From contig NC_086104.1 in the NCBI RefSeq assembly GCF_963921235.1, positions 4,030,001 to 4,094,000 of the forward strand: a DNA stretch of 64,000 nt, in the 5' to 3' direction. Each line of letters starts with the position of its first letter. Within the stretch, counting starts at the first letter, position 1. A program made the position numbers and the translations under genes. Positions 819 to 30,100 of this stretch are shown here, one piece after another. Under the pieces are notes generated by a model. That model did no database searches, was not told the DNA's origin, and saw only the letters and a list, made by a program, of their open reading frames with translations. Origin of the DNA: Mobula hypostoma (lineage: Eukaryota).

Positions 819-1163
819 GTGCAGACGTTCCTGTCCTTATCCAGTCCCCGAGCGTACAGCGTGTCACTGAGGGTCACACGGCGTGGTTATGGTGTACCAT
901 GAGCAAAGCCAGGGTGGAAGACACCGACGTCCACTGGTATCGGAAACTACCTGGGCAGGACATGGAGTGGGTTTTAACACACAGGGCAGGAGGCAGATCA
1001 GAGAGGGGACGGGGTTTCACTGAGAGGTTCCAGTCCTACAGAGACACGTCCAACAGCAGCTTCACCCTGACAGTCACAGACGTGGTGCACAGTGATTCTG
1101 CTGTCTATTACTGCAGAGTGTGGGAAAACATCGATGGGAATGGCGCCCAGCTCATCGTAACCA
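819..1163 (+). CDS. Exon V1a: VJ-type Ig V domain (GADVPVLIQSP...WLWC...VHWYR...DSAVYYCRVWENIDGNGAQLIVT)
   Basis: Acceptor ttctcccttacag|GT and donor ACCA|gtgagt, phase 1-1, 345 nt. Canonical B-strand Cys, C-strand Trp, DxAxYYC and a J-like GxG(T)xLxV end in one exon. Confidence 0.92.
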
Positions 1164-4100
1164 GTGAGTACAAGTTCTATTTATTCAGCAGTGTGTTCCT
1201 GCATTGGGAGTTATTCCAACACCACTCACTTCCCGTGGCTGGGCACATTGTACTGAAGAACACTCAGTGTAATACTGGAGCCCCATCACTGGGACACGAT
1301 CCAGAGCACTGTGGCCCCTAACTCATGGGTGGGGAGCACCGACGTGGTGACTGACCGTCTGCTCTGTGTGTCCAGTTGGATATTTGAAAATAAATTTCAA
1401 TGTGAAGTGTGTTATCACAGGAGAGAAAAGGAGAAACTGTTCAGTGTTCAGAGTCATAGATCAAGGTCTCTTAAATCTCAACCATCTCTCCTAAATGCTC
1501 TGAAAATAAGACATAAGAACATAAGAAATAGGAGTAGGAGTAGGAGGAGGCCATCTGGCCCATCGAGCCTGCCCCGCCATGCAAAAAGATCATGGCTGAT
1601 CTGTCTGTAAGCTCAGCTCCATCTACCTGCCTTTTCCCCATAACCCTTAATTCCCTTACTATGTAAAAACCTATCTAACTGTGCCTTAACTATATTTAGT
1701 GAGGAGGCCTCAACTGCTTCCCTGGGCAGAGAATTCTACAGATTCACCACTCTCTGGGAAAACAATTTCTCCTCATCTCCGTCCTAAATCTTCTCCCCTG
1801 AATCTTGAGGCAATGTCCCCTGGTTCTCGTGATAAGACGATAAAACGATAAGTGATGCAGAATCAGTTAACACTCTTAAACAGCATCTCAAAAAACTATT
1901 TATTTAACTTGCATTTAATAAAGATCTTTCAAAGTTCAAAGTAAATTTATTATCAAAGACCATATATAGAAACATAGAAACATAGAAACATAGAAAATAG
2001 GTGCAGGAGTAGGCCATTCGGCCCTTCGAGCCTGCACCGCCATTTATTATGATCATGGCTGATCATCCAACTCAGAACCCCGCCCCAGCCTTCCCTCCAT
2101 ACCCTCTGATCCACCTAGCCACAAGGGCCATATCTAACTCCCTCTTAAATATAGCCAATGAACTGGCCTCAACTGTTTCCTGTGGCAGAGAATTCCACAG
2201 ATTCACCACTCTCTGTGTGAAGAAGTTTTTCCTAATCTCGGTCCTAAAAGGCTTCCCCTCTATCCTCAAACTGTGACCCCTTGTTCTGGACTTCCCCAAC
2301 ATCGGGAACAATCTTCCCACATCTAGCCTGTCTAATCCCTTTAGGATTTTATACGTTTCAATCAGATCCCCCCTCAATCTTCTAAATTCCAACGAGTACA
2401 AGCCCAGTTCATCCAGTTTTTCTTCATATGAAAGTCCTGCCATCCCAGGAATCAATCTGGTGAACCTTCTTTGTACTCCCTCTATGGCAAGGATGTCTTT
2501 CCTCAGATTAGGGGACCAAAACTGCACACAATACTCCAGGTGTGGTCTCACCAAGGCCTTGTACAACTGCAGTAGTACCTCCCTGCTCCTGTACTCGAAT
2601 CCTCTCGCTATAAATGCCAGCATACCATTCGCCTTTTTCACTGCCTGCTGTACCTGCATGCCCACTTTCAATGACTGGTGTATAATGACACCCAGGTCTC
2701 GTTGCACCTCCCCTTTTTCTAATCGGCCACCATTCAGATAATAATCTGTTTTCCTATTTTTGCCACCAAAGTGGATAACTTCACATTTATGCACATTAAA
2801 TTGCATCTGCCATGAATTTGCCCACTCACCCAACCTATCCAAGTCACCCTGCATCCTCTTAGCATCCTCCTCACTGCTAACACTGCCACCCAGCTTCGTG
2901 TCATCCGCAAACTTGGAGATGCTGCATTTAATTCCCTCATCCAAGTCATTAATATATATTGAAAACAACTGGGGTCCCAGCACTGAGCCTTGCGGTACCC
3001 CACTAGTCACCGCCTGCCATTCTGAAAAGCTCCCGTTTATTCCCACTCTTTGCTTCCTGTCTGCTAACCAATTCTCCACCCACACCAATACCTTACCCCC
3101 AATACCATGTGCTTTAAGTTTGCACACTAATCTCCTGTGTGGGACCTTGTCAAAAGCCTTTTGAAAATCCAAATATACCACATCCACTGGTTCTCCCCTA
3201 TCCACTCTACTAGTTACATCCTCAAAAAATTCTGTGAGATTCGTCAGACATGATTTTCCTTTCACAAATCCATGCTGACTTTATCCGATGATTTCACCGC
3301 TTTCCAAATGTGCTGTTATCACATCCTTGATAACTGACTCCAGCAGTTTCCCCACCACCGACGTTAGGCTAACCGGTCTATAATTCCCCAGTTTCTCTCT
3401 CCCTGCTTTTTTAAAAAGTGGGGTTACATTAGCCACCCTCCAATCCTCAGGAACTAGCCCAGAATCTAACGAGTTTTGAAAAATTATCACTAATGCATCC
3501 ACTATTTGGGCTAGTTCCTTAAGCACTCTAGGATGCAGACCATCTGGCCCTGGGGATTTATCTGCCTTCAATCCCTTCAATTTACCTAACACCACTTCCC
3601 TACTAACATGTATTTCGCTCAGTTCCTCCATCTCACTGTACCCTCTGTCCCTTACTATTTCTGGAAGATTATTTATGTCCTCCTTAGTGAAGACAGAACC
3701 AAAGTAATTATTCAATTGGTCTGCCATGTCCTTGCTCCCCATAATCAATTCACCTGTTTCTGTCTGCAGGGGACCTACATTTGTCTTTACCAGTCTTTTC
3801 CTTTTTACACATCTATAAAAGCTTTTACAGTCCGTTTTTATGTTCCCTGCCAGTTTTCTCTCATAATCTTTTTTCCCCTTCCTAATTAAGCCCTTTGTCC
3901 TCCTCTGCTGAACTCTGAATTTCTCCCACTCCTTGAATATGTCGCAATATTCAACCCTGAAGTTCATTTTCTTGTGGGCATACCCAATAAATCCAGATTG
4001 CAATAGCAACTCTTGTTGCGTGAATGACATCGCAGAAGTAAATTACTGGTAGATTCAAAGCAGCTTCTTTATTCGACAAAACAAGGTACAGAAGGCATCA

Positions 4101-7100
4101 TATGGAGATGCTTCCGGTGGGAAAGTCTGCCGGCCCAATGTGTGGATTGATATTTGTTTGCAAAACACAAAGGACAATTCCATTTTACAAAGTATAGACA
4201 ATGCTTTTTTTGAAACTACATACAAACTTCACACCTTTTGATTCGTGTCCTTCCCACAGACGCCAGCATCATCTAGACTGGGGTCCGGAGTTTTTTGGAA
4301 TGCACCATTCCAAATTAAATCTACAATACATTGTCAAGGAACAGAAGACTGGTAGCCAAAGCCATTTGCTAAATATAAATGACCTAAAGCCAAAAATCAC
4401 TCTAACAATAACAATTATAGAGACAATGAAAGACTGCACAAACTTGGTGTTGGATGCAAGATGGTGTCAGAGAATCATGGCGACCTTCTCCGGGCTGTGC
4501 GCATCTTTCTGTCTTTAATTTTCATGTTCATGTTTATTTCTTTAATTTTATTTTGATGTTTCCTATTTATCTCATTTTAAAGCCCTTTGAACTACATCAT
4601 CTGTATGAAAAGTGCTCTACAAATGTTATTATTCTTATTACAGATGACACTGTGCAAAGGTGCCTGACTAAAAGCCCTGGAGAAGAGAACTCTGGGTGAT
4701 GATGGATTTAAATGAACCAACTCTCCCTCTTCATTCAAACTTATTGATAATTCTACCACTCACTGAACAGAAATCTGGAAGTTGTCAGAGACCACTTCCA
4801 TGGGGTTCTGGATAGCTTTGTCCCATTGAGTCAGGGAAAGGAAGGGAGGGTGAAGGAACCACAGTTGACAAGAGAAGTGGAACATCTGGTCAAGAGGAAG
4901 AAGGAAGTACACTTAAAATTTATGAAATAAAACATCAGATGGGGCTCTTGAGAGTTATAACGCTGCCAGAAACAATCTTCAGTTGGGACTTGGGAGAGCT
5001 GGAAGAAGCCTTGGCGAGTAGGAATAAGGAAACCCTCAAGACATTCTACACATACCTGAGGAACAGGAGAATGACTAGACTGAGAGGTGGACTGATCAGG
5101 GATAAAGGGAGAAATATTATCAACCGATGCAACATGGTCTTCAGAACCCTCTCCAAACTATAACAGACCCCATGACTGTAGGGCAGCCAAACCATCAAAA
5201 CCAGCCAGATATCACTGACTTCAGTAAAGAGGCTGTAAATTATTCTTGTGGTTAACATTTATTTAAATTTTAGGAATTGTTAAATGCTAGGGAAATATAC
5301 TGCCTTTTATTGAGCTCCATAAATATACATTAATGTCTACATATCCAACACACAGATCCCGCGGATGATCCCGTCCTTGTGCAGGATCCACCAATCAGCA
5401 AGGTGCCGGAGGGTGTAACTGTCCAGCTCCACTGTGCCTTGTATAATGCCAGTGTGACTGTCACCGATGTCCAGTGGTACCACCAGCGGCCGGGGAACAA
5501 GAGCGAGTGGGCGTTGAGTCACTTTGTGAATGACTCTGTGAGCAGGTCTGGGTGTATCTCTGACCGTTTTCAGTCTTACAGGAATGTCGTGAGTAACAGT
5601 TACATTCTGACCATCAGTAACACATCTATTAGTGACACTGCAGTGTACAACTGCAGTGTGTGGAGTTACATCTACGGAGGAGGAACACAGCTCAATGTAA
5701 CTGGTAAGTCAACGTCAGTTCACACCGACAATAACAGCATCTCAGTATTCAACCTTCACACGATGACTGTCAGACACAGGGGGTTCTGTAATGTCCCCAG
5801 TAGAACAGAGAGTCGGATGGTTTTCCCTGGAGTGTAAACTGGGAACAGTTGGGAAATGGAAAAGTGGGAAAGGACAAGTAGTCTGGAATAATATAGAAAA
5901 TTTTGGCAAATCTTTTGTGGATGAACAAGTTTTTCTCTGTAGCTCAGTACACGTGACAATTGTTACAAGAATCACCCCCTTATAATAATGCTCAGTGACT
6001 CGTAGAAAATCTGCAGTTACCGACAAATAACTTTTATTATTTCAAGTAAAAAGCAGGTGGGTTCACACTCTTATCTACCTGTGTGCTCCCCACTAGAACC
6101 ACTGATATTCCATGCACAGTCAATGAAGAGGAATGGTATTACCTGGGAAAGGAATCTGGGGTGGCCAGGAGTTCCTCGTGGTCCCAATCTCCTCCTGTCC
6201 ATGGGGTCCTCCGTATCTGCAATGGTTGCTCTCTGGCTGCTGGAGAGTTATCGCCCCTGTGTGTATGGATCTCCTGAGTCTTACACCGTTCCTCACCATT
6301 TGAACCATTGGATCTCCATCCCATTAGCTCAAGGTCACATGACCTACCTGGGTCACCTTCTTACTGGTCACTGTACAGGAGCTACAGCCAACATCATTTC
6401 ATGGTTCTGCCCACCCCGGACTTGTGTATTTGATCCTTTACACTCTGGCTGGTCCACACCAGTTAAATGAGGCAACCCAGGCAGCATCTGAGATTACAGA
6501 TTATTTCTTTGGTAGGTCTGACAGCTTACATAACAAGTAGCTACTCCTCTTATAATGGTCTCAGTTTTAGCAGATCATTACCTGAAGGTTCCTGTGTCCA
6601 CGTTCAGTTGCTCTGATTAGATTATCCAACAACAAGAATCAGTTCGGTGTCCACAAATTGCGGGGAAACAAAACAATTGGCTTGTCCGTTACTTCTGGCC
6701 AACATCTCCCTCCTTTTGATCCAAAGATATTTATCTTAGGATCATCATCCTCCTCTGCTTCAGTTGACGCTCCATAGGACAGCCATGGAACCCCAGTAGG
6801 TGTGCAACACTTACATTGTAGAAATAATATTAACATTTACTAATTAAATTCACCACTTTATACTGACAATCATGTCTGCTGTTTCATGAGAGTATTATCC
6901 TCAATTTTTGCCAGCATTTCAGCCTTCCATCTTTTCAGTTGATATTCATTGAGCAACACAATTATCAGGGTACATTAAATTAGTATTACAGCATCATATG
7001 GTACTATTCTTACCCATGGATGTAATTGAACATTTGGCCCCCAATTCCAAACCTTACTCCAAAAGCCTGGGTCACTCAGTATTTCATTTGCCTTACCAGC

Positions 7101-10100
7101 ATGAGTTTTAATAACTTTAGTGTGTTCATTCCATTGATGGATGATCTCCCTTGCCTCCTCCACAACACGTGTCCAGTCTGCAGTTAAGTGAGGAATTGGT
7201 GGCAACTCAGTAACAACATAGTCCCACAGATACTCATCTGTATCAGTGCATTGGATCTTGAAGTTCTCCTTCATTACTGTGTATAATACAAATTTGACTC
7301 CTCCATTTCTATTTCCATTGAGAAGATATGTTTTTTTGCTCACTGAGTGTTTTCCAAGCCATGATATCACTGTTGACATGTTTGTCCGCTGTTCTTGCTC
7401 TGGAACAAGACTGACCATGGCCCCAGTCATGGTTAATTCCATTGCAACAAAATACATTATTCGCTTCATGTTGAGTTAAACCTGTAACACACAAGGGTAA
7501 TATCTGCTCTTATTTCCAGTTTAAATCTTAAATTATTTTAAGTCCATTTTTGTTTTTCTAGACCATCTGATCTGGACTCTCAATTATTTTTGGATTCAAG
7601 GCATCCATTTTTCCTCACCCAATTTTGTTTCGGGATAGGATGAACAAGCACTGGCATATTTTCTTCCTCTTTGATTTTTTGACAAAACTCCCCTGGTTCT
7701 CAGGATGAGGGAACTGAAAATCACCCCCGTGATAAGACCTGTCCCCATCTTCTTGGAACAGTTGTTCCATCCGCAAGTCTCCCAAATCAGGGCTATCATA
7801 TGCATCAATTGTTACATGCCAATGGTGTTAACATTCCTGTTAACCCCATATCAACCAGCTTCAGCTTTTATCTGGAGAAGTCAGTACTTTGTACACTGAT
7901 GGACTTGTTTTGTCTACAATTTCATAGGACCCTGCGAACGTTAGATTTTAAGATAAGGTGGGTTGGTTTATTCTAATTATCACTCTTTCTATGGGACTGA
8001 CTTTTGAGTCAAAATAGGCTTTACTCTGTTGCTACTTCTTTCCTATTCGGTGGGTTACCACATAATTGGCCTCCTTCACTGTATCTACCAATTGTGGTAC
8101 CCATTTTACTGACACAATCCCATCTTTCCCAACAGGAATTAGAAAAGGCGAGTCAAAAGGGTAATGTTATGGTAGTCATGGGAGATTTTAACATGCAGGT
8201 AGATTGGGAAAATTAGGCTAGTAATAGATCTCAAGAGAGTGAGTTTGTTGAAGGCCTAAGAGATAGCTGTTTAGAGCAGTTTGTTGTTAAGCTTACTAGG
8301 GGAGCAGCTATACTGGTTTGTGTGTTATGTAATGAACCGGAGGTGATTAGGGAGCTTTCAAAAATCTTTGGAGTCTGGCATGTTGCCTGAGGACTGGAAA
8401 ATTGCAAATGTTGCTCCTCTTTTAAGAAAGGAGGAAGGCAGCAGAAAATAAATTATAGACCAGTTAGCCTGACCTCAGTGGCTGGGAAGGTGTTGGAGTC
8501 AATTGTTAAGGAAGAGGTGATGGAGTACTTGGTGACACAGGACAAGATAATACAAAGTCAGCATAGTTTCCTTCAGGGAAAATCCTGCCCGACGAACCTG
8601 TTGGAATTCTTTGAGGAGATTACAAGTATGATAGATAGAGGGGATGCAGTGAATGTTGTATATTTGGACTTTCAGATGGCCTTTGACAAGATGCCACTCA
8701 TGAGGTTGCTTACCAAGCTCAGAGCCCATGGTATTACAGGAAAGTTACTAACATGGTCAAAGCGCTGGCTGATTGGTAGGAGGCAGCAAGTGGGAATAAA
8801 ATGATCCTCTTCTGGTTGGCGGCCAGTGACTAGTGGTGTTCTTCAGGGGTTGCTGTTGGGACCACTTTTTTTATGCTGTATGTAAATAATCTAGATGATG
8901 GAATAGATGGCTTTTTTGCCAAGTTTGCAGATGATATGAAGATTGTTGGAGGCGCAGGTAGTGTTGAGGAAACAAGTAAGATGTACAAGGACTTAGACAG
9001 ATAAGGAAAATGGGCAAGAAAGTGGCAAATGAAATACAATGTTGGAAAATGCATGGTCATGCACTTTGGTAGTAGAAATAAATGTGTGGACTATTTTCTA
9101 AACCGGGAGAAAATACTGGAATCTGAGATGCAGAGGGACTTGGGAGCCCTTGTGTAGAACACCCTGAATGGTGAGGAAGGCAAATGCCATGTTAGCATTC
9201 ACTTTAAGAGGTCTAGAATACAAGAGCAAGGATGTGATGCTGAGGCTTTATAAGACAATGGTGAGGCCTCACCTTGAGTATTGTGAACAGTTTTGGGCCC
9301 CTCATCTCAGAAAAGATGTGCTGGCATTGGAGAAGGTCCAGAAGAGGTTCACAAGGATGATTCCAGGAATGAAAGGATTATCATATGAGGAACGTTTGAT
9401 GGCCCTGGGTCAGTACTCGCCGGAATTCAGAAGGATGTGGGGGGGGGGGAGGGTGGGATCTCACTGAACCTTTTGCCACCCAATTTTGCCAATTTGTGGC
9501 TGCCACTCCTGCCCAAATAAAGCACCTTGCTTCACCAATTCGTCGGCCTTTCTATTTCTCTCAGGAGAGAATGTTGAAAGGCCTAGACAGAGTAGATGTG
9601 GAAAGGCTGTTTCCCATGGTGGGAAGACAAGAGGGCATAGCCTCAGAATAGAGGGGCACCCTTTCAAAACAGAGATGCGGATAAATTTCTTTAGCAAAAG
9701 AGTGATGAATTTGTGGAATTTGTGGAATTTGTTGTGGAGGCCAGGTCAATGGTTATATTTAAGGCAGAGATTGACAGGCTCTTGATTGGACATGTCATCA
9801 AAGGTTACGGGGAGAAAGCCAGGAACTGGGGTTGAGGAGGAGATAGAAAAAAAAATCAGCTATGATTGAATGGCAGACCAGACCTGATGGGCCAGATGGC
9901 CTAATTCTGTTCCTATGTCTTATGGTCTTGTGGTCTATGGTTTCAGGATCTGACAAATCTAATCCTATCAGCTCCTCTATTCGTCTTATCTCAATTCTGG
10001 TCATGAGCTTATAAGGGGCATAACCTGTAGAAGATGGCACTGTATTCCTTTATTATCATCAGTACATAGGGCAAAACTTCCTGTTGTTGCTATGATGTTC

Positions 10101-13100
10101 CATGTTGCTGCACCATTTTTGCAATAATTTTTTATAGTGTTTGATTCATCCTCTCCACAATTCCATGAGACTGTGGTCTATAGAGTATATGAAATCTCTG
10201 ATTGATCCCTTAAAGTATCATGACATCTTGCATTATCTGGTCTGTGAAATGTGTGCCTTGATCCGATTTGATACTCTGGCGTAGTCCCTAGTGAGTGAAT
10301 ATCCTTTCCAATAAGATTTTTGCAGTGGCCTTTGCTGTGTTTGTCTTAACCAGGAAAGCTTCCACCTACTTTGTAAAGGTATCTATTACTACCAGAATAT
10401 ATTTGTACCCTCCTGAGGTGAGTGGTAAAGGACCAACATAATCTATCTGCAAATTAGTCCCAGGCCCTTCCATTGTCTGGTGTGTTGAAAGGCTCCTTTC
10501 TTTACATTTCTATTGAGATATATCAAACAATTTTTGACATAATGTTCCACGTCATCCTTTATCTTTGGACACCAGCCCACTTCCTTGATCTTTCCAGGGT
10601 GGATTCGCACCCGTGGTGTCCCCATGGTACCATTGGATCATTTGGTTTCTTCCTCCCTCTGGAACCACAAGCTTTCCTTCATGTAGGAAAACTCCATCTT
10701 TGACATTCTTGTGCTCTTTGTATATTTCAGACCCTGCACATATAATCAATTTTTAAAATTCTTTATCTTTCTTCTGTTCTTTCTGCTGATAAATCCATAA
10801 CCTTAATGTATTCTTCCTTCTGCCTCCCAATCTCGCCAATCTGTGGCTGCCATTCCTGCCCAAATGAAGCACTTTGCTTCACGAATTCGTCAGCCTTTCT
10901 ATTTCCCTCAAGAGATAATTTAGAGTGGGCTTTCTTTTCCCTTTGCATCTTCAAATATGTATTGTAATAAAGCAGCAGATGCTTCCTGTCAGCTGAAACA
11001 AACCCACAGTGGTTAAAGAAGAGATTAATGCAATAGAAAGGAAGGACATAAGCCGGGAAGATGTGGAATCGATATGGGTAGAGCTGCGTAACACTAAGGG
11101 GCAGAAGACGCTGGTGGGAGTTGTGTACAGGCCACCTAACAGTAGTAGTGAGGTCAGAGATGGTATTAAACAGGAAATTAGAAATGTGTGCAATAAAGGA
11201 ACAGCAGTTATAATGGGTGACTTCAATCTACATGTAGATTGGGTGAACCAAATTGGTAAAGCTGCTGAGGAAGAGGATTTCTTGGAATGTATGCGGGATG
11301 GTTTTTTGAACCAACATGTCGAGGAACCAACTAGAGAGCAAGCTATTTTGGACTGGGTTTTGAGCAATGAGGAAGGGTTAATTAGCAATCTTGTCGTGAG
11401 AGGCCCCTTGGGTAAGAGTGACCATAATATGGTGGAATTCTTCATTAAGATGGAGAGTGACATAGTTAATTCAGAAACAAAGGTTCTGAACTTAAAGAGG
11501 GGTAACTTTGAAGGTATGAGACGTGAATTAGCTAAGATAGACTGGCAAATAACACTTAAAGGATTGACGGTGGATATGCAATGGCAAGCATTTAAAGGTT
11601 GCATGGATGAACTACAACAATGGTTCATCCCAGTTTGGCAAAAGAATAAATCAAGGAAGGTAGTGCACCCGTGGCTGACAAAAGAAATTAGGGATAGTAT
11701 CAATTCCAAAGAAGAAGCATACAAATTAGCCAGAGAAAGTGGCTCACCTGAGGACTGGGAGAAATTCAGAATTCAGCAGAGGAGGACAAAGGGCTTAATT
11801 TGGAAGGGGAAAAAAGATTATGAGAGAAAACTGGCAGGGAACATAAAAACTGACTGTAAAAGCTTTTATAGATACGTAAAAAGGAAAAGACTGGTAAAGA
11901 CAAATGTAGGTCCCCTACGGACAGAAACAGCTGAATTGATTATGGGGAGCAAGGACATGGCAGACCAATTGAATAATTACTTTGGTTCTGTCTTCACTGA
12001 GGAGGACATAAATAATCTTCCAGAAATAGTAAGGGACAGAGGGTCCAGTGAGATGGAGGAACTGAGCGAAATACATGTTAGTAGGGAAGTGGTGTTAGGT
12101 AAATTGAAGGGATTGAAGGCAGATAGATCCCCAGGGCCAGATGGTCTGGATCCTAGAGTGCTTAAGGAAGTAGCCCAAGAAATAGTGGATGCATTAGTGA
12201 TAATTTTTCAAAACTCGTTAGATTCTGGACTAGTTCCTGAGGATTGGAGGGTAGCTAATGTAACCCCACTTTTTAAAAAAGGAGGGAGAGAGAAACCGGG
12301 GAATTATAGACCGGTTAGCCTAACGTCGGTGGTGGGGAAACTGCTGGAGTCAGTTATCAAAGATGTGATAACAGCACATTTGGAAAGCGGTGAAATCATC
12401 GGACAAAGTCAGCATGGATTTGTGAAAGGAAAATCATGTCTGACAAATCTCATAGAATTTTTTGAGGATGTAACTAGTAGAGTGGATGGGGAGAACCAGT
12501 GGATGTGGTATATTTGGATTTTCAAAAGGCTTTTGACAAGGTCCCACACAGGAGATTGGTGTGCAAACTTAAAGCACACGGTATTGGGGGTAAGGTATTG
12601 ATGTGGATAGAGAATTGATTAGCAAACAGGAAGCAAAGAGTGGGAATAAACGGGACCTTTTCAGAATGGCAGGCGGTGACTAGTGGGGTACCGCAAGGCT
12701 CAGTGCTGGGACCCCAGTTGTTTACAATATATATTAATGACTTGGATGAGGGATTTAAATGCAGCATCTCCAAGTTTGCGGATGACACGAAGCTGGGTGG
12801 CAGTGTTAGCTGTGAGGAGGATGCTAAGAGGATGCAGAGTGACTTGGATAGGTTGGGTGAGTGGGCAAATTCATGGCAGATGCAATTTAATGTGGATATG
12901 TGTGAAGTTATCCACTTTGGTGGCAAAAATAGGAAAACAGATTATTATCTGAATGGTGGCCGATTAGGAAAAGGGGAGGTGCAACGAGACCCATTGAAAG
13001 TGGGCATGCAGGTACAGCAGGCGGTGAAAAAGGTGAATGGTATGCTGGCATTTATAGCAAGAGGATTCGAGTACAGGAGCAGGGAGGTACTACTGCAGTT

Positions 13101-16100: not shown

Positions 16101-19100
16101 TCTGTTCTCCGTTTAACCTCTCTCGTTCGGCTTCAGCTTTTTGCCAACATTCATTTTCCAAGTCTAATCTGTGCTGTTCCGCTTTAACATTTTGTTGTAA
16201 TTCTATCAAATCCTCAATTAAACACCCAACTGCTACTGTTTTTTTGTAATTGTTTAAACTTCCTGCTCGACAGCTTCCCTTGGGCAATTCTCCACAGAGC
16301 ATCACCAGCAGTTTCCCCTTCACAGCCAGGGTAACCCACAAACTCCTCGTACTGTGGCCACTTCCCCAACACGTATTTCTGGAGGTGTCCCCTCCAATCA
16401 AAACAATCCAAGTCCCTTGGACTTGCAGAATTTCCTGAATTCATCATCCTGGGTTAGTAACCACTAAATACCCAGCCCCAGATCACTGTAACTCACCCAC
16501 GAGATCCGACTCAAATCTCCCTCTGAACAAAAAGATTTATCCTCGAACCCACCCAGGGATGCCAATTCTGTTACAGAAATCACTCCTTGTAAAAATGATC
16601 AGTGAGGCACAGGGAATCTGTAGTTACTGACAAGTAACTTTTATTATTTCAACTACAAAGCACATGGGTTCACACTTTTATCTACCCGTGCTCCCTACTA
16701 GTACCCCTGACACTCCATGAACAGTCAATAAAGAGGAAAGGTATTACCCGGGAAAGGAGTCTCCGCTGACCAGGCGTTCCTCATGGTCCCGATCTCCACT
16801 TGTCCGTGGCGTCCTCCTTATCCGAGATGGTTGGTCTCTGGCTCCTCGAGAGTTATCGCCCCTGAGTCTTATACTGTTCCTCATCAATTGAACCATTGGA
16901 TCTCCATCCCATTGGCTCAAGGTCACATAACCTACCTGGGTCACTTTCTTACCGGTCATTGTACAGGGCTACAACCAACGTCGTTTCATGGTTCTGCCCA
17001 TCCCAGCCTGTGTATTTGAGCCTTTACACTCTGGCTGGTCCAAACCAGTTAAATGAGGCAACCCAGGCAGAGCCTAACGAGATTACAGATTGCTTCTTTG
17101 GTAGGTCTGGCATTTTACATAACAAGTAGCTACTCCTCTGAGAACGTTCTCAGGTTTATTGCTCTGATTAGATTGTCCAGAATCAAGAATCGGTTCAGAG
17201 CCTTTACAGAACAAATGGCTATTTGTTTGAGAATAGTCTCAGGTTCAAAAGATCATTACCTGAAACTTCCCATGTCCACATTCAGTTGTTCTGATTAGAT
17301 TATCCAAGAGCAAGGATCAGTTCAGAGTCCATAAAAATGGGGGAAACAAAGACAACCGGTTTGTCTGCTTCCCCTGTCCTTGACCAGTCAGTAGTTTCTT
17401 CCTTCAATTAGTCCTGATGAAGGGTCTTGGCCTGAAGCATCGACTGTACCACTTCCCAGAGATACTGCCTGGCCTGCTGCGTTCACAGCAACTTTGATGT
17501 GTGTTACTGTAACAACCTTATGTTTCTTGCAACAGTGCAATCCCGAGGACGCTTCAGTTCATGTGCAGTATCCAACTATCGTTGAGCCAATTCTGAATCC
17601 ACTTCACTTTGCATCAGTCTTCACTGTGAAAGACACTAGCAGTGTGCCAGGTGCTGAAGGGTGTGAGAGAAGAGAAGTCAGTGTAGTTACTATAAGAGGG
17701 GAGAAGACGCTCAAAAAGATGAAAGTCATAAGTCATCTGAACCAGATGAACCAGGGTTCTGAACCTGGGCCAGGGTACTGAAAGCGGTAGCATTGGAGAT
17801 TATGGAGGCATTAATAATGATCTTTCAAAAATCATTGAACTCTGGCATGGTTTCAGAGGACTGGAAAATTGCAAATCTCACTCCAGTCATTCAGAAAGGA
17901 GGAAAGCAGCAGAAACGAAATTATAGACCAGTTAGCCTGACCTCAGTGGTTGGGAAGATATTGGAATCAATTCTTAAGGATGAGCTTATGGACTACTTGG
18001 TGACACAGGACAAGATAGGACTCAGTCAGCATGGTTTCTTTCAGGGAAAATTTTGCCCAACAAGCCTGTTGGAATTCTTGAAGGAGATTACAAGTAGGAT
18101 AGATAAAGGGGATACAGTGGCTGTTGTATATTTGGTCTGTCAGAAGGCCTTTGACAAGGTGCCATACATGAGGCTGCTTACCAAGTTAAGAGCCCATTGT
18201 ATTACAGGAAAGTTACTAACATAGTTAGAGAATTGACTGATTGGTAGGAGACAGCGAGTGGGAATAAAAGGGTCCTTTCCTGGTTGGCTGCCAGTAACTA
18301 GTAGTGTTCTGCAGGGGTTGGTGATGGGACTGCTACTTTTTATACTGTATATCAATGACTTAGATGATGGAATAAATGGTTTTGTTGTCATGTTTACAGA
18401 TGATGCGAAGATTGGTGGAAGGGCAGGTAGTGCTGAGGAAAGAGGTAGACTGCAGGAGGACTTAGACAGATTAGGAGAATGGACAAGAAAGTAGGAGGTT
18501 AAATACAATGTTGGAAATATATGGTCATGCACTTCGATAGTAGAAATATATATGCAGACCATTTTCTAAATGGGGAGAAAATCCAAAAATCTGAACGGCA
18601 AAGGGACTTAGGAGTCCTTGTGCAGAACACCCTAAAAGTCAGTGGTGAGGAAGGCAAATGCAGTGTTAGCATTCATTTCAAGAGGTTGAGAATACAAGAG
18701 CAAGGATGTGATGCTGAGGCATTATAAGGCAATGGTGAGACCTCACCTTGAGTATTGTTAACAGTTTTGGGTTCCTTGTCTATGAAAAGATGTGCTGGTA
18801 TTGGAGACAGTTCAGAGGAGGTTCATAAGGATGATTCCAGAAATAGTAGTCATAGTCATAGTCATAGTCATAGTCATACTTTATTGATCCCGGGGGAAAC
18901 TGGTTTTCATTATAGTTGCACCATAAATAATAAATAGTAATAGAACCATAAATAGTTAAATATTAATGTGTAAATTATGCCAGTACATTATGAAATAAGT
19001 CCAGGACCAGCCTATCAGCTCAGGGTGTCTGACCCTCCAAGGGAAGAGTTGTAAAGTTTGATGGCCACAGGCAGGAATGACTTCCTATGACGCTCTGTGC

Positions 19101-22100
19101 TGCATCTTGGAGGAATGAGTCTCTGGCTGAATGTACTCCTGTGCCCAACCAGTACATTATGTAGTGGATGGGAGACATTGACCAAGATGGCATGCAACTT
19201 AGACAGCATCCTCTTTTCAGACACCACCGTGAAAGAGTCCAGTTCCATCCCTACAACATCACTAGCCTTACGAATGAGTTTGTTGATTCTGTTGGTGTCT
19301 GCTACCCTCAGCCTGCTGCCCCAGCACACAACAACAAACATGATAGCACTGGCCATCACAGACTCGTAGAACATCCTCAGCATCATCCGGCAGATGTTAA
19401 AGGACTTCAGTCTCCTCAGGAAATAGAGATGGCTCTGACCCTTCTTGAGAACAGCCTCAGTGTGCTTAGACCAGTCCAGTTTACTGTCAATTCGTATCCC
19501 CAGGTATTTGTAATCCTCCACCATGTCCATACTGACCCCCTGGATGGAAACAGGGGTCACCGGTACCTTAGCTCTCCTCAGGTCTACCACCAGCTCCTTA
19601 GTCTTTTTCACATTAAGATGCAGATAATTCTGCTCACACCATGTGACAAAGTTTCCTACCGTAGCCCTGTACTCAGCCTCATCTCCCTTGCTGATGCATC
19701 CAACTATGGCAGAGTCATCAGAAAACTTCTGAAGATGACAGGACTCTGTGCGGTAGTTGAAGTCCGAGGTGTAAATGGTGAAGAGAAAGGGAGACAAGAC
19801 AGTCCCCTGTGGAGCACCAGTGCTGCTGGTCACTCTGTCAGACACACAGTGCTGCAAGCACACGTACTGTGGTCTGCCAGTCAGGTAATCAAGAATCCAT
19901 GATACCAGGGAAGCATCCACCTGCATCACCTGCAATGAAAGGGTTATCATATGAGGAACGTTTGATAGCTCTAGGTCTGTAGTCACTTGAATTTAGAAAG
20001 ATAAAGGGGCAGCTCACTGAGACATTTTGAATGTTGCAAGGCCTAGACATGGTAAATTTGGATAAGATATTTCCCATGGTTGGAGATTTTAGGACAAGAG
20101 GGCACAAACTCAGGATTGAAGAGCATCCATTTAAAGCAGAGATGCGGAGAAATTTCTTTAACCAGAAGGTGGAATACTTGTCGAATTCATTACCACAAGC
20201 AGCTGTGAATGCCAGGTCGTTGGGTGTATTTAGGGCAGAGCTTGATAAGTTCTTGATTGGACACGGCATCAAAGGTTATGAGGAGAAGGTAGAGAATGGG
20301 GCTGAGGAGGGGAAAAAGTATCAACCATGATTAGATGGTGGAACAGACTCGATGGACCAAATGGCTTAATTCTGCTCCCATGTCTTATGGTCTTATGGAA
20401 TTGGCTCCATAGCTGTCAGTTAGCAGTGAATTCCACAGTGTTATCACTCCCTTGATAAAGAAGTTCCTATTCATCTCTGTTCTAAAGGAACATCCTTCTT
20501 TTCTGAGGCTGTGCACCCTGGTCCTTGACTCCCCGATTATAGAAAACATTATTGCAACGTCCACCATACCTAGGCCTTTTAGTATCCGTAGTTTACAATG
20601 AGATTCCCCTTCATTCTTCTATAATACTGTGAATTCAGGCCCAGAACCATCAAATGCTCCACATACGTTAATCTTTTCTCCTGGGATTATTCTCTTGAAC
20701 CACCTCTCCAATTCCAACACATCCTTTCAAAGATGAGGGTTGAAAACTGCTCACCATATCCCAAGAGCAGTTTGATCCATGTCCGGTACAGCCTCAGCAT
20801 TGCACCTCTTCACCAAGTAAGGTGTGCAGTTCTAATCACCGATCAAAAGTTTGAAACAGTGCTGAGAAAACTTACATAGTTCATGCCAGGACTTCAGGAC
20901 CTGAGTTATCGGGAAACGTTGAATAGGCTAGGAGCATAGAAGATTGAGGGGAGATTTGATAGAGGTACACAAAATTATGAGGAGCATCGATAGGGTAAGT
21001 GTAAGCAGGTGTTTTTCCACTGAGGTTAGGTGAGACGAGAACTTGAGGTCATGGTCAAGGTGAAAGGTGAAGTATTTAAAGGGAAACTGAAAAGAAACTT
21101 CTTCTCTCGGAGGATGCTGTGAGTGTGGAATGAGCTGCCCATGAACTGGTGGATATGGGTTCAATTGCAACATTTAGAGAAGTTTGGATAGGTACATCAA
21201 CATGACAGGTGTGGAGGGCTGTGGTCTGGGTGCAGATAGATGGGACTTGGCAGAAAAACAGGTTGGCACAAAGTAGAGGGGCTGAAGGGCCAGTCATGTT
21301 ACAGATATTTAAAATTTTAGCTAGATCATATGATGTAGTTCATAGAGTTCCTGTTGTAGTAAGGATGTGGAGACTGTGGAAAGACTGCAGACGAGGTTCA
21401 CTGGGATGCTGCTTGGATTAGAGGGAATGAAATTCAAGAAATTCAATGAAATTGAAGGAAAGCGTGGGCAATCTCGGGTTGTTCTCCGTTGTAGCAGAAA
21501 TGTCAAACAGCAGACATGGTTTTAAGGTTTGAGCAGGGCGATGTTTAAAGGCGATGTGAGTTTACTGCTTGTTTCTCACCAACTATCAGCGACAAAATCA
21601 CTCCCTTTCGAACACAAGCAGATGCCACTGAGGCTATTTAAAATCTATTCGCTCGAAGCATGGTGTTGTCTGCAACGGCCTTGCAAAGATACATGACCAA
21701 CGTTATTTACAAACTGTTCAGCAACAACATCCTGTCCCAATTAAGTGAGATAGTGTCTCAAATAAACAAAGTGAATTCTGGCTATATTCTCAATTAGTTT
21801 TTGTTATTTGAGAGATGTCCCAAATAAGCGGCTCCCAACAGCCCAATGAACCGGAATCTGCTGTATCTGCCTGGAACAGGTTACTGGGGTAGTAGTGAAG
21901 CAGGAAGTGTGTTTGACTTTAAGAGGATTTTAGATAGACACGTGAATACAAAGGGAATGGAGGGATATGAATGATGCATAGGAGGAGGATATTTAACATA
22001 AATGACCATCAAGGTTGGCACAATATCAAGGCCAGATGTCCTGTCCAGTTCTGTACTGTTCCACGTTCAATTCGAAGTGGGTGATGATTACTTGAAGCAC

Positions 22101-24111
22101 ATATTTATCACCCATCATTGGTCTCGCCTGAACTCTGTAAACTCAGGAACAGCTGCAACATAATATTAATATCAGAAGCAATAAAGTGTTTGTACTTTCA
22201 CTAGAGGTCATGTAACAAAAGATGTCTGCTTCAAGCTGGGGTTGAAGTGACGATATTCTCCCTTACAGGTGCAGACGTTCCTGTCCTTATCCAGTCCCCG
22301 AGCATACAGCGTGTCACTGAGGGTCACACGGCGTGGTTATGGTGTACCATGAGAAACGCCAGGCTGGAAGACACCGACGTCCACTGGTATCGGAAACTAC
22401 CTGGGCAGGACATGGAGTGGGTTTTAACACACAGGGCAGGAGGCAGATCAGAGAGGGGACAGGGTTTCACTGAGAGGTTCCAGTCCTACAGAGACACGTC
22501 GAACAGCAGCTTCACCCTGACAGTCACAGACGTGGTGCACAGTGATTCTGCCGTCTATTACTGCAGAGTGTGGGGAGACATCAACGGGAACGGCACCCAG
22601 CTCATCGTAACCAGTGAGTACAAGTTCTATTTATTCAGCAGTGTGTTCCTGCATTGGGAGTTATTCCACCACCACTCACTTTCCGTGGCTGGGCACATTG
22701 TACTGAAGAACACACAGTGTAATACTGGAGCCCCGTCACTGGGACACGTTCCAGAGCACTGTGGCTCCTAACTCATGGGTGGGGAGCACCAACATGGTGA
22801 CTGACCGTCTGCTCTGTGTGTCCAGTTGGATATTTGAAAATAAATTTCAATGTGGAGTGTGTTATCACAGGAGAGAAAAGGAGAAGCTGTTCAGTGTTCA
22901 GAGTCATAGATCAGGCTCTCTTAAATCTAAACCATCTCTTCCAAATGTTCTGAAACTGTGGAGATGCAGCATCAGTTAACACTTTTGAATGCCAGCTCAA
23001 AAAATTATTTAGTTAACAATGAACATCTTTTCAAAGTTCAAAGGAAATTTATTGTCAAAGTCCATTTTTGTCACCATATTCAACCCTGCGATCCATTTTC
23101 TTGTGGGCATACTCCATAAATCCACAACAGAATAATCACCATTGTGGAATCAATGAAAGACTACACTAACTTGGTCTTGGATGCAAGATGGTGTCGGCGA
23201 ATCACCGTGACATTTTCTGGGCTACGTGCATCTTGTTGCCTTTAACTTTCATGGTTAGTTTTATTTTTTCATTTTATTTTCATGTTTGCCCTTTCACTCT
23301 TTTTAAAGTTTCTTTGAAATACACTATCTGTATGAAGAGTGCTCAATGAATAAGTTATTCTTATTATTATTACAGCTCAGCACTGTACAAAGGTGCCTGA
23401 CTAAAAGCCTTGGCTGGTGATAGATTTAGATGAACCAACTCAATTTAAGAGAAGGTTGAATAGATTTTTGCATAGTAAGGCAATTAAGGGTTATGGGGAA
23501 AAGGCAGGTAGGTGTGTCAGGTATACGCAACCTTGTAAAGGTATCAGCAGCAATAGAACACACCTGGAATCTGGTTTTGTTGTTAACAAAACACTATTTT
23601 ATTAGTTACTACGTCATTTAGTAACTTAAACCAGATAAATCAAGAGTTAACGGGGTTATGCATATATAATTGTAAACATATACATCCCCAAACTTCTTCA
23701 GAGTAAGGGTGGTAAGTGATATAGCCTTATGATGGTGTGGTAAGGAAATTCAGTTCAGTCCAAGGGTTTGAAGACAGAGAGAGAGAGAGAGTTTTGTAAT
23801 CCCGATAAACAGGTGTCATGATCTTCCTTGATGTCCTCCTAAACTTCCAAGTTAGCCAAACTTGACCAACTTAAATGCGCCGTCTTCAAGTGATAATCTA
23901 CCAACCCAGGCAAGGGTTAGACACACCAGTAGATTCCACAGGGTCTCCCTTACATGCACTGATAGTCACAGATCGATTCCACTTAATTGATCCTCAGCCC
24001 CACCCTTGTGGGCACTTAAAAGTTCAGTGGCGTCTGTGTGTCCTGCAAAAGAGACAGCCATGCTTGTTAAAATACCGGTGTGCTGAACACCAGCTGTCCA
24101 TCATGTAGCTC

Positions 24112-24171
<60 letters not shown>

Positions 24172-27100
24172 TCTCTCTCTCTGCAGCAAACTGCTTGCAC
24201 TGTACGTCTCTCTCTCTCTCTTACTGGCATGATTCCTAAAGGCACAGTCCATAATGAATAAAATTTAAAATTACGTCACACCTCCCTCCTTTCGAGAAAA
24301 AAATTTGATCAAAAAGCAAAGTTTTTTCCATCTATAGATTACAAAGCATAAAGCAATACATATGTAATTACCAGGTAACACGTTACAGAAGTGAACACAG
24401 ACCTTATCTTAACACCTGGACAAACAATCTGCTATAATGTTGTCAGTACCTTTAACATGTTTTATTTCCATGTCATATTCCTGCAAGATCAGACTCCAGT
24501 TCAATAACCTTCTATTCTTATCCTTCATCTTACTCAGAAATACTAATAGATTATGATCAGTGTAAATCACAAGTAGTTTCTGCACAGGACTAATGCAGAC
24601 ATCAAAATTTTGTAAGGCCAAAATAAGTGATAACAACTCTTTTTCAATAGTGGAATAATTCTTCTCATACTCATTAAATTTCTTTGAATAGTAAGCTGCA
24701 GGATGTTCAATATCATTGTCACCCTTTTGTAACAATACTGCCCCAGCAGCTTCATCGCTGGCATCTACAGCTATAGAAAATGGTTTTGAAAAATCAGGTG
24801 CTTTGAGCACAGGTTGATAACATAGAATAGTTTTTAGTTATTCAAATGCCTCTTGACAGGACTCATTCCAAACAAACCTTTCACCTTTTTTTAGTAGTGT
24901 CATTAGGGGGAGAGTGATATCAGCAAAGATTTTACAAAACTTACAGTAATACCCAACCACACCTAAAAACCTTCTTATAGCTTTCTTGCTCGTCAGAACA
25001 GGAGCCTGAACCTTGGCTTGAACAGGAGCCAATTGGCCTTGGCCTACTATGTAGCCAAGATAATTTTCAGTGGCATGGCCAAAGTCACTTTTAGCGAGGT
25101 TAACAGTATGGTTGGACTTGGAAAGCCTGTCAAACAGCTGCTCTACTGCCGAGATATGCTCTTCCCACGTGTCACTCCGTACAACCAAATCATCAATATA
25201 AGCCTCTGTATTTTCTAATTCTCCAATCACAGAACTAATTATTCTTTGGAATGTCCCTGGAGCATTTTTCATTCCAAAGGGTAAAACATTGTACTCATAC
25301 AATCCAGAGGGTGTTATAAACGCAGAAATTTAACCATATAACCATATAGAAACATAGAAACATAGAAAATAGGTGCAGGAGTAGGCCATTCGGCCCTTCG
25401 AGCCTGCACCGCCATTTATTATGATCATGGCTGATCATCCAACTCAGAACCCAGCCTTCCCTCCATACCCCCTGACCCCTGTAGCCAATTACATCACGGA
25501 AACAGGCCATCTTGGCCCATCTAGTCCGTGCCGAACTCTTACTCTCACCTAGTCCCACCGACCTGCACTCGGCCCATAACCTTCCATTCCTTTCCTGTCC
25601 ATATATCTATCCAATTTAACATTAAATGACAACATCGAACCTGCCTCAACCATTTCTGCTGGAAGCTCGTTCCACACAGCTACCACTCTCTGAGTAAAGA
25701 AGATCCCCCTCATGTTACCCCTACAACTTGGCAACTGTGATAGGTCCTGCAAAAAGTCACAACATCTTTCCTTAAATTAGGCCAGTAAAATTCCCTCATA
25801 TTCCTTTTCATGGTCTTATTCACCCCAAAATATCCACCTAAAGGCATATCATGAGCCATGTTTAAAATTTCAGTCCTGTAAACTTTTGGGGCCACAACTT
25901 GGTGCACAATGGCCCAATCCTCACTTACAGGCACAGTAGGTGGTCTCCACTTTCATTAACACCCCGTCCTTTAGGAAATAGCCGACTGACTCCCTCTGAA
26001 CTTCATCATCGGAGAAAACTGTTTCTTTTAAAGCCACAATCTAGGGATCTTGGTTTTGTTCCACCATAAATTCTTTCCTGGATAAAGATAAACCTTTCTC
26101 ATCAGCCTGGCTACTCAAATCCTGCTGAAACATGGTCAGCAGAAAAGTTTCTGACAAATCATCCTGATCTGAACCCCTATTTTGGCTATTATGAGCACCA
26201 AAATCCCCTTGCCCAGAACTACCTGCGTCAGCAGACCTTTTAGTCTTGCTGTGGTCTACTGCGCATCCAGGGTAAATATCCGTATCTATGTGTGGATTGT
26301 CTCTGTAGCAGGCTTGCTTGTTAGCTGTACTGCTGGATAAACATCACCACGTGCAAAGTCATTACCCAACAGCACATCCACATTCTTCATCGGTAAATTC
26401 AGATTATACCCCTATCTTAACAGGTCCTGATAACAATCTACAATTCAAAAACACCTTATTCAAAGGCACGGGCACAGTCCCCTTTCCAATTCCTTTAACA
26501 ATATTTACTTTGTCAGTTTTTGTCTTATCACCAAATTTCAAATCACTGTCCAATATCAGCCCCAATATCTCGCCAGATCCTGACTGGGACCGGGGTTGAC
26601 CCCTCCTTTATGGACACAAACCCATCTGAGACAAACTGATCGACTCCCTCCTGAGCTCAGTCAGGCCTTCCCTTCCCTGGCAGTGTCGCAACTATCTGAA
26701 CACAAGCATTTGTGGTTGCCTCCTTTCTTTAGATGCCACATGACCGGGCTTCTTAGAAAAGTAACAAGTAATACTGGAAAATTTTCCCTTCGACTGCTTC
26801 CCTTCATCCCTACTTTTGTCACTAGTCCCCGGCTTACTTTCTGATTTAGCCTGCGGGTTATCCTTGCTACTCCTTTGGTCGCCCTTATTTGGGAAAAACT
26901 TAACCTTATGACTTAAGGCAAACTCACCTGCTAACTCATCTGACAGGGTCGCAGCCTCTTTTTCATCTAGATACGTCCTTACTTCAACAGAGACGTGGTT
27001 TTTAAATTCTTCAGTCAAAACCAACTCTCTCAAGTTGTCAATATCCTCATTCGCCCCTTTTGAGGTACACCAATTTCTCATAGGCAAACTCCACATATGT

Positions 27101-30100
27101 TTGATTCCCAGACTTCCTCAAACCTTTAAACTTTTGTCTGTATGTCTCCGGAACAAACTCATAAACCTTAAGCACAGCGTCTTTCACTGTGTAATAATCA
27201 GTTGCCTCTGCCAGTCAGAGCAGAATACGTTTGCTGTGCTTTCTCTTTAATTACACTTTGTAACAAAACAGCCCACCGGTCCACCGGCCACTGCTGATTC
27301 TGGGCTACTTTTTCAAAATGCAGTAAGTACTTATCAACTTCTGCTTCATCAAATGGAGGTACTAGCTTAATTTCTCGGCTGACACTAAACCTATCATCAA
27401 GGTCTGGCACTTGACCTCTTTGCTGCATTCTCTCCCTCTCAAACTGTCTCCGTTTTTCTACTTCTTCAGCCTCGAGCTATTTTAGTTGCAACTGATGTTG
27501 TCTTCGCTCTTTCTCATCCTCCCTCTTTAATTTTTCTAACTGAAGCTGAAGCTCAGCCTCAGTAGTTTTACTTTCAGCAAACATTTCCAACACATCCTCT
27601 TCAAACTTTGCCTTGGATATATAATACTGCACTATTAACATTTGTATCTGAGCCTTCCTCATTCTCATGTTCATCTTAAGTTTTAACTTGTGAGCAATTT
27701 CCACCAGCATAACCCTCTTAGCATCATCTAATGCCTCAGATGTTGGTTCTGCCAGAAACCTACCAACCTCAACCTCCATTGCTGCTGATTTCTCACTGAA
27801 GAAAATCAAAAGGGATTTTCCCCAAACAGATCAACCATTAATCAATCAATTAAGCACCCAACAATTTTAAAATGGCTCCAAACAATTTGTTCATATCCCG
27901 GACGAACCTCCAATTTAGGTCACGCACATGCAAACTTGTAAAGGTAGCAGCAGCAATAGAACAAACCTGAAGTCTGGTTTTGTTGTTAACAAAACACTAT
28001 TTTATTAGTAACTAGGTCATATAGTAACTTAAACCAGATAAATCAAGAGTTAATGGTGTTATGCATATATAATTGTAAATATATAAATCCACAAACTTCT
28101 TCAGAGTAAGGGTGGTAAGTGATATAGCCTTATGATGGTGTGATAAGGAAATTCAGTTCAGTCCAAGGGTTTGAAGACAGAGAGAGAGAGATTTGTAATC
28201 CCAGTAAACAGGTGTTATCGATCTTCCTTGATGTCCTCCGAAACGTCTAAGTTAGCCAAACTTGACCAACTTAAGAGCGCCGTCTTCAAGTGATAATCTA
28301 CCAACCCAGGCAAAGGTTAAACACGCTAGTAGATTCCACAGGGTTGCCCTTACATGCACTAATTCCTCATAATCGATCCTCAGCCCCACCCTTGAGGGCA
28401 CTTAAAAGTTCAGTGGCATCTGCATGTCCCGCAAAAGAGCAGCTACACTTGTTTAAATACCGCTGTGCTGAACACCAGCTGTCCATCATGTAGCTCCTCC
28501 CCTCTCTCTCTTTCTCCACAGCAAGCTGCTTGCGCTGTACATCTCTCTCCCTCTCTCTCTCTCTCTCTTACAGGCATGATTCTTAAAGGCACAGTCGATA
28601 ATGAATAAAACTTTAAAATTCCGTCACAGGTGGCCAGATCAGCCATGATCTTATTGAATGGCGGAGTGGGCTTGGTGGGCCAGATTGCCGACTCCTACTC
28701 CTTTTTCTTCTGTTTTTGTGTTAACTCTCCCTCCTCATTCAAGCATTGATAATTCTACCACTCACTGAAGAGAAATGTGGAGGTTGTTTAGGAACCACTT
28801 CCATGGGGTTCTGGATAACTTTGCCCCATTGAGTCAGGGAAAGGATGGTAGGGTGAAGGAACCATGGTTGACAAGAGAAGTGGAACATCTGGTCAAGAGG
28901 AAAAAGGAACTGTACTTAAAGCTTAGGCAGTAAAAAATCAGACGGGGCTCTTGAGAATTATAAGGTCACCAGGAACGGTTTTCAGTTGGGACTTGGGAGA
29001 GCTGGAAGGAGCCTTGTCCAGTAGGAATAAGGAAACCCCCAAGACATTCTACACATACCTGAGGAACAGGAGAATGAATAGACTGAGGGTAGAACCGATC
29101 AGGGATAAAGGAAGAAATATTATCAACCGAACATGGTCTTCAGAATTCTCTCCAAACTATAACAGACCCCATGACTGTAGGGCAGCCAAACCATCAGAAC
29201 CAGCAAGATATCAGTAAAGAGGCTGTAAATTATTCTTGTGGCTAACATTTCTTTAAATTTTAGAAATTGTTAAATGCTGGGGAAATACACTGCCTTGTAT
29301 TGAGCTCCATAAATATACATTAATGTCTACATATCCAACACACAGATCCCGCGGATGATCCCGTCCTTGTGCAGGATCCACCAATCAGCAAGGTGCCGGA
29401 GGGTGTAACTGTCCAGCTCCACTGTGCCTTGTATAATGCCAGTGTGACTGTCACCGATGTCCAGTGGTACCACCAGCGGCCGGGGAACAAGAGCGAGTGG
29501 GCGTTGAGTCACTTTGTGAATGACTCTGTGAGCAGGTCTGGGTGTATCTCTGACCGTTTTCAGTCTTACAGGAATGTCGTGAGTAACAGTTACATTCTGA
29601 CCATCAGTAACACATCTATTAGTGACACTGCAGTGTACAACTGCAGTGTGTGGAGTTACATCTACGGAGGAGGAACACAGCTCAATGTAACTGGTAAGTC
29701 AACGTCAGTTCACACCGACAATAACAGCATCTCAGTATTCAACCCTCACACGATGACTGTCGGACACAGGGGGTTCTGTAATGTCCCCAGTAGAACAGAG
29801 AGTCGGATGGTTTTCCCTGGAGTGTAAACTGGGAACAGTTGGGAAATGGAAAAGTGGGAAATGACAAGTACTCTGGAATAATATAGAAAATCTTGGCAAA
29901 TTATTGTGTGGATGAACAAGTTTTTCTCTATACCTCAGTACGTGTGACAATAATAAACCAATTTACTAAGAGCTCACCCTGTGGGTGTGAGTTGTCAGAA
30001 CTGGACGATGTTACCAATCGGAAAAACAGTCAGAGCAAGTGGACGGGAGAAGAGGATAAAGTGATGTGGGTTGTATTCTTTAGGCATGCCGTGGGTTACT

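Follow-up and report, generated by a model that had tools for sequence, protein, structure and literature searches.

Clustered immune receptors with near-identical ectodomains, inhibitory or activating tails and variable numbers of domains are known from the NITRs of teleosts, the APARs of hagfish, SIRP and CEACAM1/CEACAM3. NITRs combine a V with an I domain and have extra conserved cysteines, SIRP has a V-C1-C1 ectodomain, and mammalian pIgR has five V-type domains; in known receptors, immunoreceptor tyrosine-based inhibitory and switch motifs (ITIM and ITSM) recruit SHP-1/SHP-2 upon tyrosine phosphorylation. PMC5112662 describes the pairing of CEACAM1 with CEACAM3, and PMC3031540 describes MDIR, a skate multigene family with activating and inhibitory members, together with a CD300/pIgR/MDIR type of V domain that has a YWC motif and two disulfides. 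Genes with a non-rearranging, joined variable and joining (VJ) exon have been sought as relics of the antigen-receptor ancestor; UrIg and UrIg2 of elasmobranchs are such genes according to PMC12227049, in which UrIg2 has been lengthened by duplication of two adjacent exons, homogenised by gene conversion, with a domain number that varies between species. Here we analyzed a window of 64,000 nucleotides from Mobula hypostoma (G000:C22:4030001-4094000; window base 1 is C22:4030001, and positions without a contig prefix are those of the window) that contains two pairs of V-set exons, V1a-V2a (unit A) and V1b-V2b (unit B). We conclude that these four exons most likely belong to one gene for an inhibitory-type receptor with five V domains.

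The gene lies in a 2.4-Mb cluster of about 14 loci (C22:2.2-4.6 Mb), with two to five single-exon, pre-joined VJ domains. This one cluster contains six transmembrane (TM) copies with an ITIM-type tail and five with a tail bearing an immunoreceptor tyrosine-based activation motif (ITAM), and the same V2 precedes both kinds of tail. This is the arrangement that defines paired receptors, and the cluster is thus a paired inhibitory/activating family. As in NITR, APAR, SIRP and CEACAM1/CEACAM3, near-identical ectodomains of variable domain number are clustered, but here all ectodomains are VJ-type V domains, with no I, C1 or C2, and the ITAM of the activating members lies in their own tail, in place of a charged TM segment. 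No family domain has more than three cysteines (two in 55 of 68, three in 13 of 68), in contrast with NITRs, and the predicted protein of the window gene, P0045, has five V-set stretches and no C1-set domain by Pfam, in contrast with SIRP; the 'SIRP-like' names of some relatives are automatic. Tandem V-type domains are shared with pIgR, CD300 and skate MDIR, but the family domains have a J-like GxG strand, the YWC motif was found in 0 of 68, and a second disulfide is lacking in 68 of 68.

The best matches in the genome from outside the family (44-47%) are joined VJ exons on C2 with a light-chain constant (CL)-like exon just downstream, and these share 71% identity with a 'type I immunoglobulin light chain' from skate (P0085). 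The stretch in question, G000:C2:235.9-238.0 Mb, is a cluster of type I light-chain genes, made up of a VJ and a CL-like exon, that are joined in the germline, as has been described in skates; its interpretation as T-cell receptor (TCR)-gamma V segments was rejected, given the joined VJ and the CL-like exon. A sequence search of the PDB gave antibody fragments among the matches listed. The V1 and V2 domains of the family have a mean identity of 43-51% to type I light-chain variable (VL) regions vs 29-45% to other light chains, while V0 lies about equally near type I VL and another light-chain type. In a quick tree search that omitted three long TCR rows and near-duplicates (35 of 89 rows), the family formed one clade (98), sister to type I VL (87), with the Shimodaira-Hasegawa-like approximate likelihood ratio (SH-aLRT) as the only measure of support; with the long TCR rows kept, and one row truncated to 86 amino acids, the tree was unresolved. 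These comparisons give moderate support to type I light-chain V regions as the nearest match of the V domains. Like the type I (sigma-2/sigma-cart/NS5) light-chain VJ of cartilaginous fish, the family has a single-exon pre-joined VJ, a split leader and a phase 1 splice, but unlike a type I light chain, which consists of VJ and one CL without TM, it has tandem V domains, a TM segment and tyrosine motifs, and no C1. Residues that we take to be VL-VH contacts are altered, with no Phe before GxG in V1 and a sequon at YNCS in V2. The single-exon VJ with split leader is also a feature of UrIg/UrIg2 (PMC12227049), and UrIg2 as described there is the nearest precedent for the mechanism, with two adjacent exons duplicated and homogenised; unlike UrIg2, in which C1-type repeats follow one VJ, the present family repeats V domains and forms a paired ITIM/ITAM cluster.

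Gene layout and the case for one receptor

The first-pass annotation had described the four V exons and an in-frame joint from V2a to V1b, and both descriptions held up. All four exons match Pfam V-set (E 1e-14 to 2.5e-15), have AG...GT edges in phase 1-1, and carry their own J-like strand inside the exon; no recombination signal sequence heptamer was found near their ends, and J is not separate as it would be in a rearranging V segment. V2a ends in ACTG before an intronic GTAAGT, and V1b begins after AG with GTGCAGAC, so that the two join in frame. The elements of the gene are as follows.

C22:4009548-4009596 (G000), about 20 kb upstream of the window: leader exon
C22:4023945-4024307 (G000), about 6 kb upstream of the window: V0 exon, the fifth V domain, opening with the tail end of the split leader
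819-1163, plus strand: V1a exon, single-exon VJ, the gene's second V domain
5356-5703, plus strand: V2a exon, single-exon VJ with six N-glycosylation sequons; both edges match contig ends or joints
5961-17365, minus strand: decayed long terminal repeat (LTR) retroelement, endogenous retrovirus (ERV)-like, antisense to the gene and broken by pieces of long interspersed elements (LINEs)
22269-22613, plus strand: V1b exon, differing from V1a at 13 of 345 nucleotides
29346-29693, plus strand: V2b exon, identical in DNA to V2a (0 differences)
37313-37457, plus strand: TM exon, a hydrophobic stretch without charged residue (predicted helix 607-641)
39226-39269, plus strand: tail exon 1, with TLYATV (ITSM/ITIM-like)
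45283-45326, plus strand: tail exon 2
49639-49752, plus strand: last coding exon, with IFYADI (ITIM), TEYAVI (ITSM-type) and the stop codon

Ten GT-AG exons join into a protein of 714 amino acids, L-V0-V1a-V2a-V1b-V2b-TM-tail, that exactly matches P0045 (XP_062911014.1); the gene structure therefore already exists as a machine prediction in RefSeq, under the name 'uncharacterized protein' (Mobula hypostoma). Its TLYATV, IFYADI and TEYAVI motifs fit what we take to be the ITIM/ITSM patterns. In a structure model of P0045, the chain folds into five separate beta-sandwiches, spaced by 5-6 residues, and a single TM helix (mean predicted local distance difference test score, pLDDT, 75.6; predicted template modelling score, pTM, 0.36), with the orientation of the domains undefined. 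The V2 copies of M. hypostoma (5358-5702 and 29348-29692 in the window) also have a third, unpaired cysteine, C66, that is absent from the relatives compared and could allow disulfide-linked dimers.

Several observations connect the two units. The sole family leader is upstream of unit A and the sole TM exon downstream of unit B. In Mobula birostris, model P0003 has the order V0-V1-V2-V1-V2 with the same TM type, at 93% compared to 80-90% for other M. hypostoma paralogs; because of this shared order, the five-domain layout is not an error of one assembly, and the two blocks also differ in the 13 V1 bases and in their intron elements. Of 44 database proteins, 19 have a V1-type domain directly after V2, and in white shark model P0004 the V1-V2 unit occurs twice, the two copies being identical over 204 amino acids, ahead of an ITIM-type tail. 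Contigs from sequencing runs, which we take to be RNA by inference, joints at exact exon edges fitting spliced RNA, displayed the V1-to-V2 splice in 4 of 4 runs and in both contig mappings (one study in the first, two in the second), the V0-to-V1 splice in X4 and X5, and, when mapped on paralog B, a V1-V2-V3 contig in X5, which shows the V2-to-V3 splice in a relative. Contigs drop rare variants, so that the absence of the V2a-V1b joint from the joints listed carries no weight either way. V1b itself is likely transcribed, because run X3 has a V1 contig only 2 bases from V1b, from which the other V1 copies differ by at least 8. The initial 53 nt of V1b are also present in the V1 at C22:4240k. 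We infer the V2a-V1b splice from the reading frame, the anatomy of the gene and the gene models.

The product would most likely be a type I membrane receptor of five tandem pre-joined VJ domains with an ITIM/ITSM-type tail. Ligand may be bound by the variable loops of V0 and V1, leading to phosphorylation of the tail tyrosines and recruitment of SHP-1/SHP-2. The heavily glycosylated V2 could serve as a conserved spacer, such that the extra block would add reach and a second, slightly different V1 site, and shorter in-frame isoforms are presumably also made. By analogy with known receptors, the protein is likely a brake on immune cells, an inhibitory member of a shark-and-ray paired family.

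A number of points weigh against this interpretation. The V2a-V1b junction is supported indirectly, and the V1-V2 contig of run X1 exactly matches paralog B, making it evidence for the family rather than for this gene. In X3, a 344-nt contig extends without a splice from 21954 into V1b, as expected of pre-mRNA or DNA but also of an internal start. RefSeq models are fallible here: P0016 spans 250 kb across other genes, P0059 runs from an ITAM tail into a further V-domain pair, and the M. hypostoma protein may have served as a guide for the M. birostris model. Moreover, V2 as a spacer is conjecture based on its sequons and its conservation, and the likely inhibitory function is read from motifs. 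As for P0016, which joins V2 at C22:4490k to V1 at 4240k and TM at 4232k, it would most simply reflect reads across a V2-to-V1 junction that were assigned to the wrong one of the identical V2 copies, and in that case would be indirect support for such a splice.

Gene models with two kinds of tail occur at RefSeq LOC134350038 (C22:4493k, 4490k, 4240k and 4232k), where one isoform has the ITAM tail and the other continues, at a distance of 250 kb, with the V1 and ITIM-type tail of a different gene. This is likely a mapping artefact, although it may represent real tail swapping.

The interval between the units and the competing explanations

Between the units, at 5704-22268, the first-pass annotation had reported an ERV and LINEs and no TM, tail or leader exon, and the family-specific searches agree with it. 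In genome-wide DNA searches, 0 of 8 copies of the leader exon, 0 of 6 copies of the ITIM-type TM exon and 0 of 6 copies of the first tail exon fall in this interval, so that no family leader copy lies between 17.4 and 22.2 kb, where its presence would have spoken for a separate gene. None of the five copies of the second (ITAM) TM class is in the window, and a search of the fetched loci placed the one copy of a second leader class outside it. A second copy among the fetched loci exists for 74% of the interval, and the remainder, save two gaps of about 100 bp, sits between LTR-like direct repeats (5961 to about 6700 and 16569 to about 17365, 83% and 79% alike). LINE open reading frames in the interval match RVT_1, and an integrase-like frame full of stops lies on the minus strand at about 10030-10560 (rve E 0.006, below the Pfam cut-off); three ERV-like frames gave no Pfam match. 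A generic leader scan was not discriminating, scoring the true leader at 2.37 and an LTR-derived candidate at 6201/6222 at 2.63; this candidate, with a weak donor, was rejected as lying within the LTR without likeness to the family. A generic TM scan gave two weak candidates in the interval (1.95 and 2.15), also rejected as LINE-derived and similar to the two background candidates in the control interval (1.82 and 2.01), compared to 3.16 for the true TM. The V1b-V2b intron contains an LTR retrotransposon with reverse transcriptase and RNase H matches (23516-28628), where unit A has a LINE.

The most serious alternative retains a single gene, but has its main product skip a block to leave three V domains (V0-V1a-V2-TM, or V0/leader straight to V1b), with the V1 exons as alternative cassettes and the five-domain form minor or absent. 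We consider this improbable. All V exons are in phase 1-1, and any of them can therefore be skipped in frame; the shorter model lacks exactly the last V exon in 4 of 6 RefSeq isoform pairs (Heptranchias, Heterodontus, Stegostoma and M. birostris); paralog models P0029 and P0031 splice the leader straight to a V1-type exon; and the V2a-V1b intron is 16.5 kb of retroelements. However, both RefSeq isoforms listed for the gene keep five V domains, V2-to-V1-type splicing is common in the family, as the database proteins indicate, and the splice acceptors of V1a and V1b show no difference over at least 20 nt, with nothing to mark mutual exclusion. Alternative V-pair cassettes, as raised by the first-pass annotation, are plausible, but its suggested test, the 5703/37313 junction, cannot be read from sequence alone, as V2a does not differ from V2b; for the same reason, short reads do not distinguish V2a-TM from V2b-TM, or V1a-V2b from V1a-V2a. 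A transcript that skips one block would be 693 nt shorter than the five-domain form.

Two separate transcription units, in which L-V0-V1a-V2a would be a secreted three-domain protein ending in 44 intron codons and V1b-V2b-TM either a leaderless remnant or a gene with its own unrecognised promoter, are very unlikely. Read-through past V2a does give a 44-residue tail and a stop, the interval has 15 AATAAA sites, units A and B resemble modules of different paralog lineages, and the one unspliced contig enters V1b; but no family leader lies close to V1b, the donor of V2a is a consensus GTAAGT, V2b is followed by the same read-through, which argues for a shared intron rather than a secretory exon, and the TM and tail are intact, in agreement with the five-domain model of M. 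birostris. The idea that unit A is an orphaned or secreted paralog finds no support, since unit A bears the only leader and unit B has none. Least credible of all is an assembly artefact placing two haplotypes or collapsed paralogs in tandem. The complete identity (100%) of V2a and V2b is what this explanation would predict, but identity is shared by four of six full V2 copies spread over 1.4 Mb, while V1 exons, flanks (77-95% alike) and intron elements differ between the blocks and the order recurs in a second species, so that it is already largely refuted. What remains the best account is thus the single lengthened receptor; of the first-pass proposal, the repeated V1-V2 module and single tail stand, while the count of V domains rises from four to five with V0 and the leader upstream.

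Origin of the second block and exon-limited conversion

The second block repeats V1-V2, and to this extent the proposed internal duplication stands. In the tree, V1b groups with V1-type and not V3-type exons, and V2b with V2, which makes the gene V0 plus two V1-V2 blocks rather than the common V0-V1-V2-V3 layout. However, the mid-intron segment of unit B is 77% like that of unit A and 85-88% like those of three other genes. Units A and B are at least as similar to neighbouring genes as to one another, and unequal crossing-over between paralogs therefore accounts for the layout as well as a duplication in place would; it is likely that the second block was added, and the ectodomain lengthened, in this way. 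The breakpoint can be placed only within 5960 to about 21290, lost among the elements.

The V2 exons differ by a mean of only 0.3% in pairwise comparisons of six copies, vs 10-17% in bins from 60 nt upstream and 82 nt downstream. Q39 and C66 are present in all four M. hypostoma V2 domains compared, and H39 and Y66 in all five from M. birostris. Judged from sequence, this is the pattern of gene conversion across paralogs, and a clean case of how exon-limited conversion misleads short-read annotation. V1 has no such contrast (3.0% in the exon, 2.3-2.4% in the flanks). Seven of nine V1a-V1b replacement changes fall in loops resembling complementarity-determining regions, and the ratio of nonsynonymous to synonymous differences (pN/pS) among seven V1 exons is 2.33 in loops vs 0.74 in framework, figures whose weight is lessened by resting on few, non-independent changes and on loop borders set by the analyst. 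The six sequons of V2 compare with one or two in V1. The last two tail exons (45283-45326 and 49639-49752) match those of gene B, which lies about 1 Mb away, at 100% identity, against 90% for the TM exon, implying that conversion also touches the signalling tail.

The family in sharks and rays

Whether the window contains one gene or two is a modest question, since the structure is already predicted in RefSeq, and the family matters more. Exon order varies among its members, with V0-V1-V2-V3-TM in gene B, V0-V1-TM in the gene at 4.24 Mb and V1'-V2-TM in gene F, and in the second tail class the TM is uncharged and an intron splits the ITAM after its first Tyr-Met. All 44 V2 matches and all 21 TM plus tail matches come from sharks and rays, in a database search that requires shared 5-mers and so does not show absence in other groups. 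No description of the family was found in the literature searched, most subscription journals lying outside that search, and it is apparently unnamed. It is an elasmobranch-wide multigene set with on and off tails and with domains nearest one particular light-chain type, a candidate inhibitory receptor family for shark and ray immunology. Such a family either descends from a re-joined antibody gene, with adaptive parts reused innately, or is a relic near the light-chain ancestor. Tentatively, and short of calling it probable, we suggest that a germline-joined type I light-chain VJ exon may have turned innate and founded the paired ITIM/ITAM family. Addition or skipping of V1-V2 blocks would then adjust the reach and valency of its receptors, and conversion would maintain a uniform V2 spacer as the loops of V1 diversify; such a hand-back from adaptive to innate immunity would not have been described before.

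Some further loci were recorded. A lone V0-like match (77%) lies at G000:C62:20518112-20518454, with no intact V frame picked up in the fetched stretch. In two ITAM-type genes (C22:4147052-4148218 and 4485137-4486302), the V1 exon is split by an insertion just before the TM exon. Finally, on the minus strand at about C22:2219.7k-2214.6k, a V3-type VJ exon belongs to a single open frame of 1686 codons that extends into a long region of Gly/Ser/Asn repeats; a divergent V0-like exon lies 16 kb upstream, and this locus is possibly a family member with a very long stalk.

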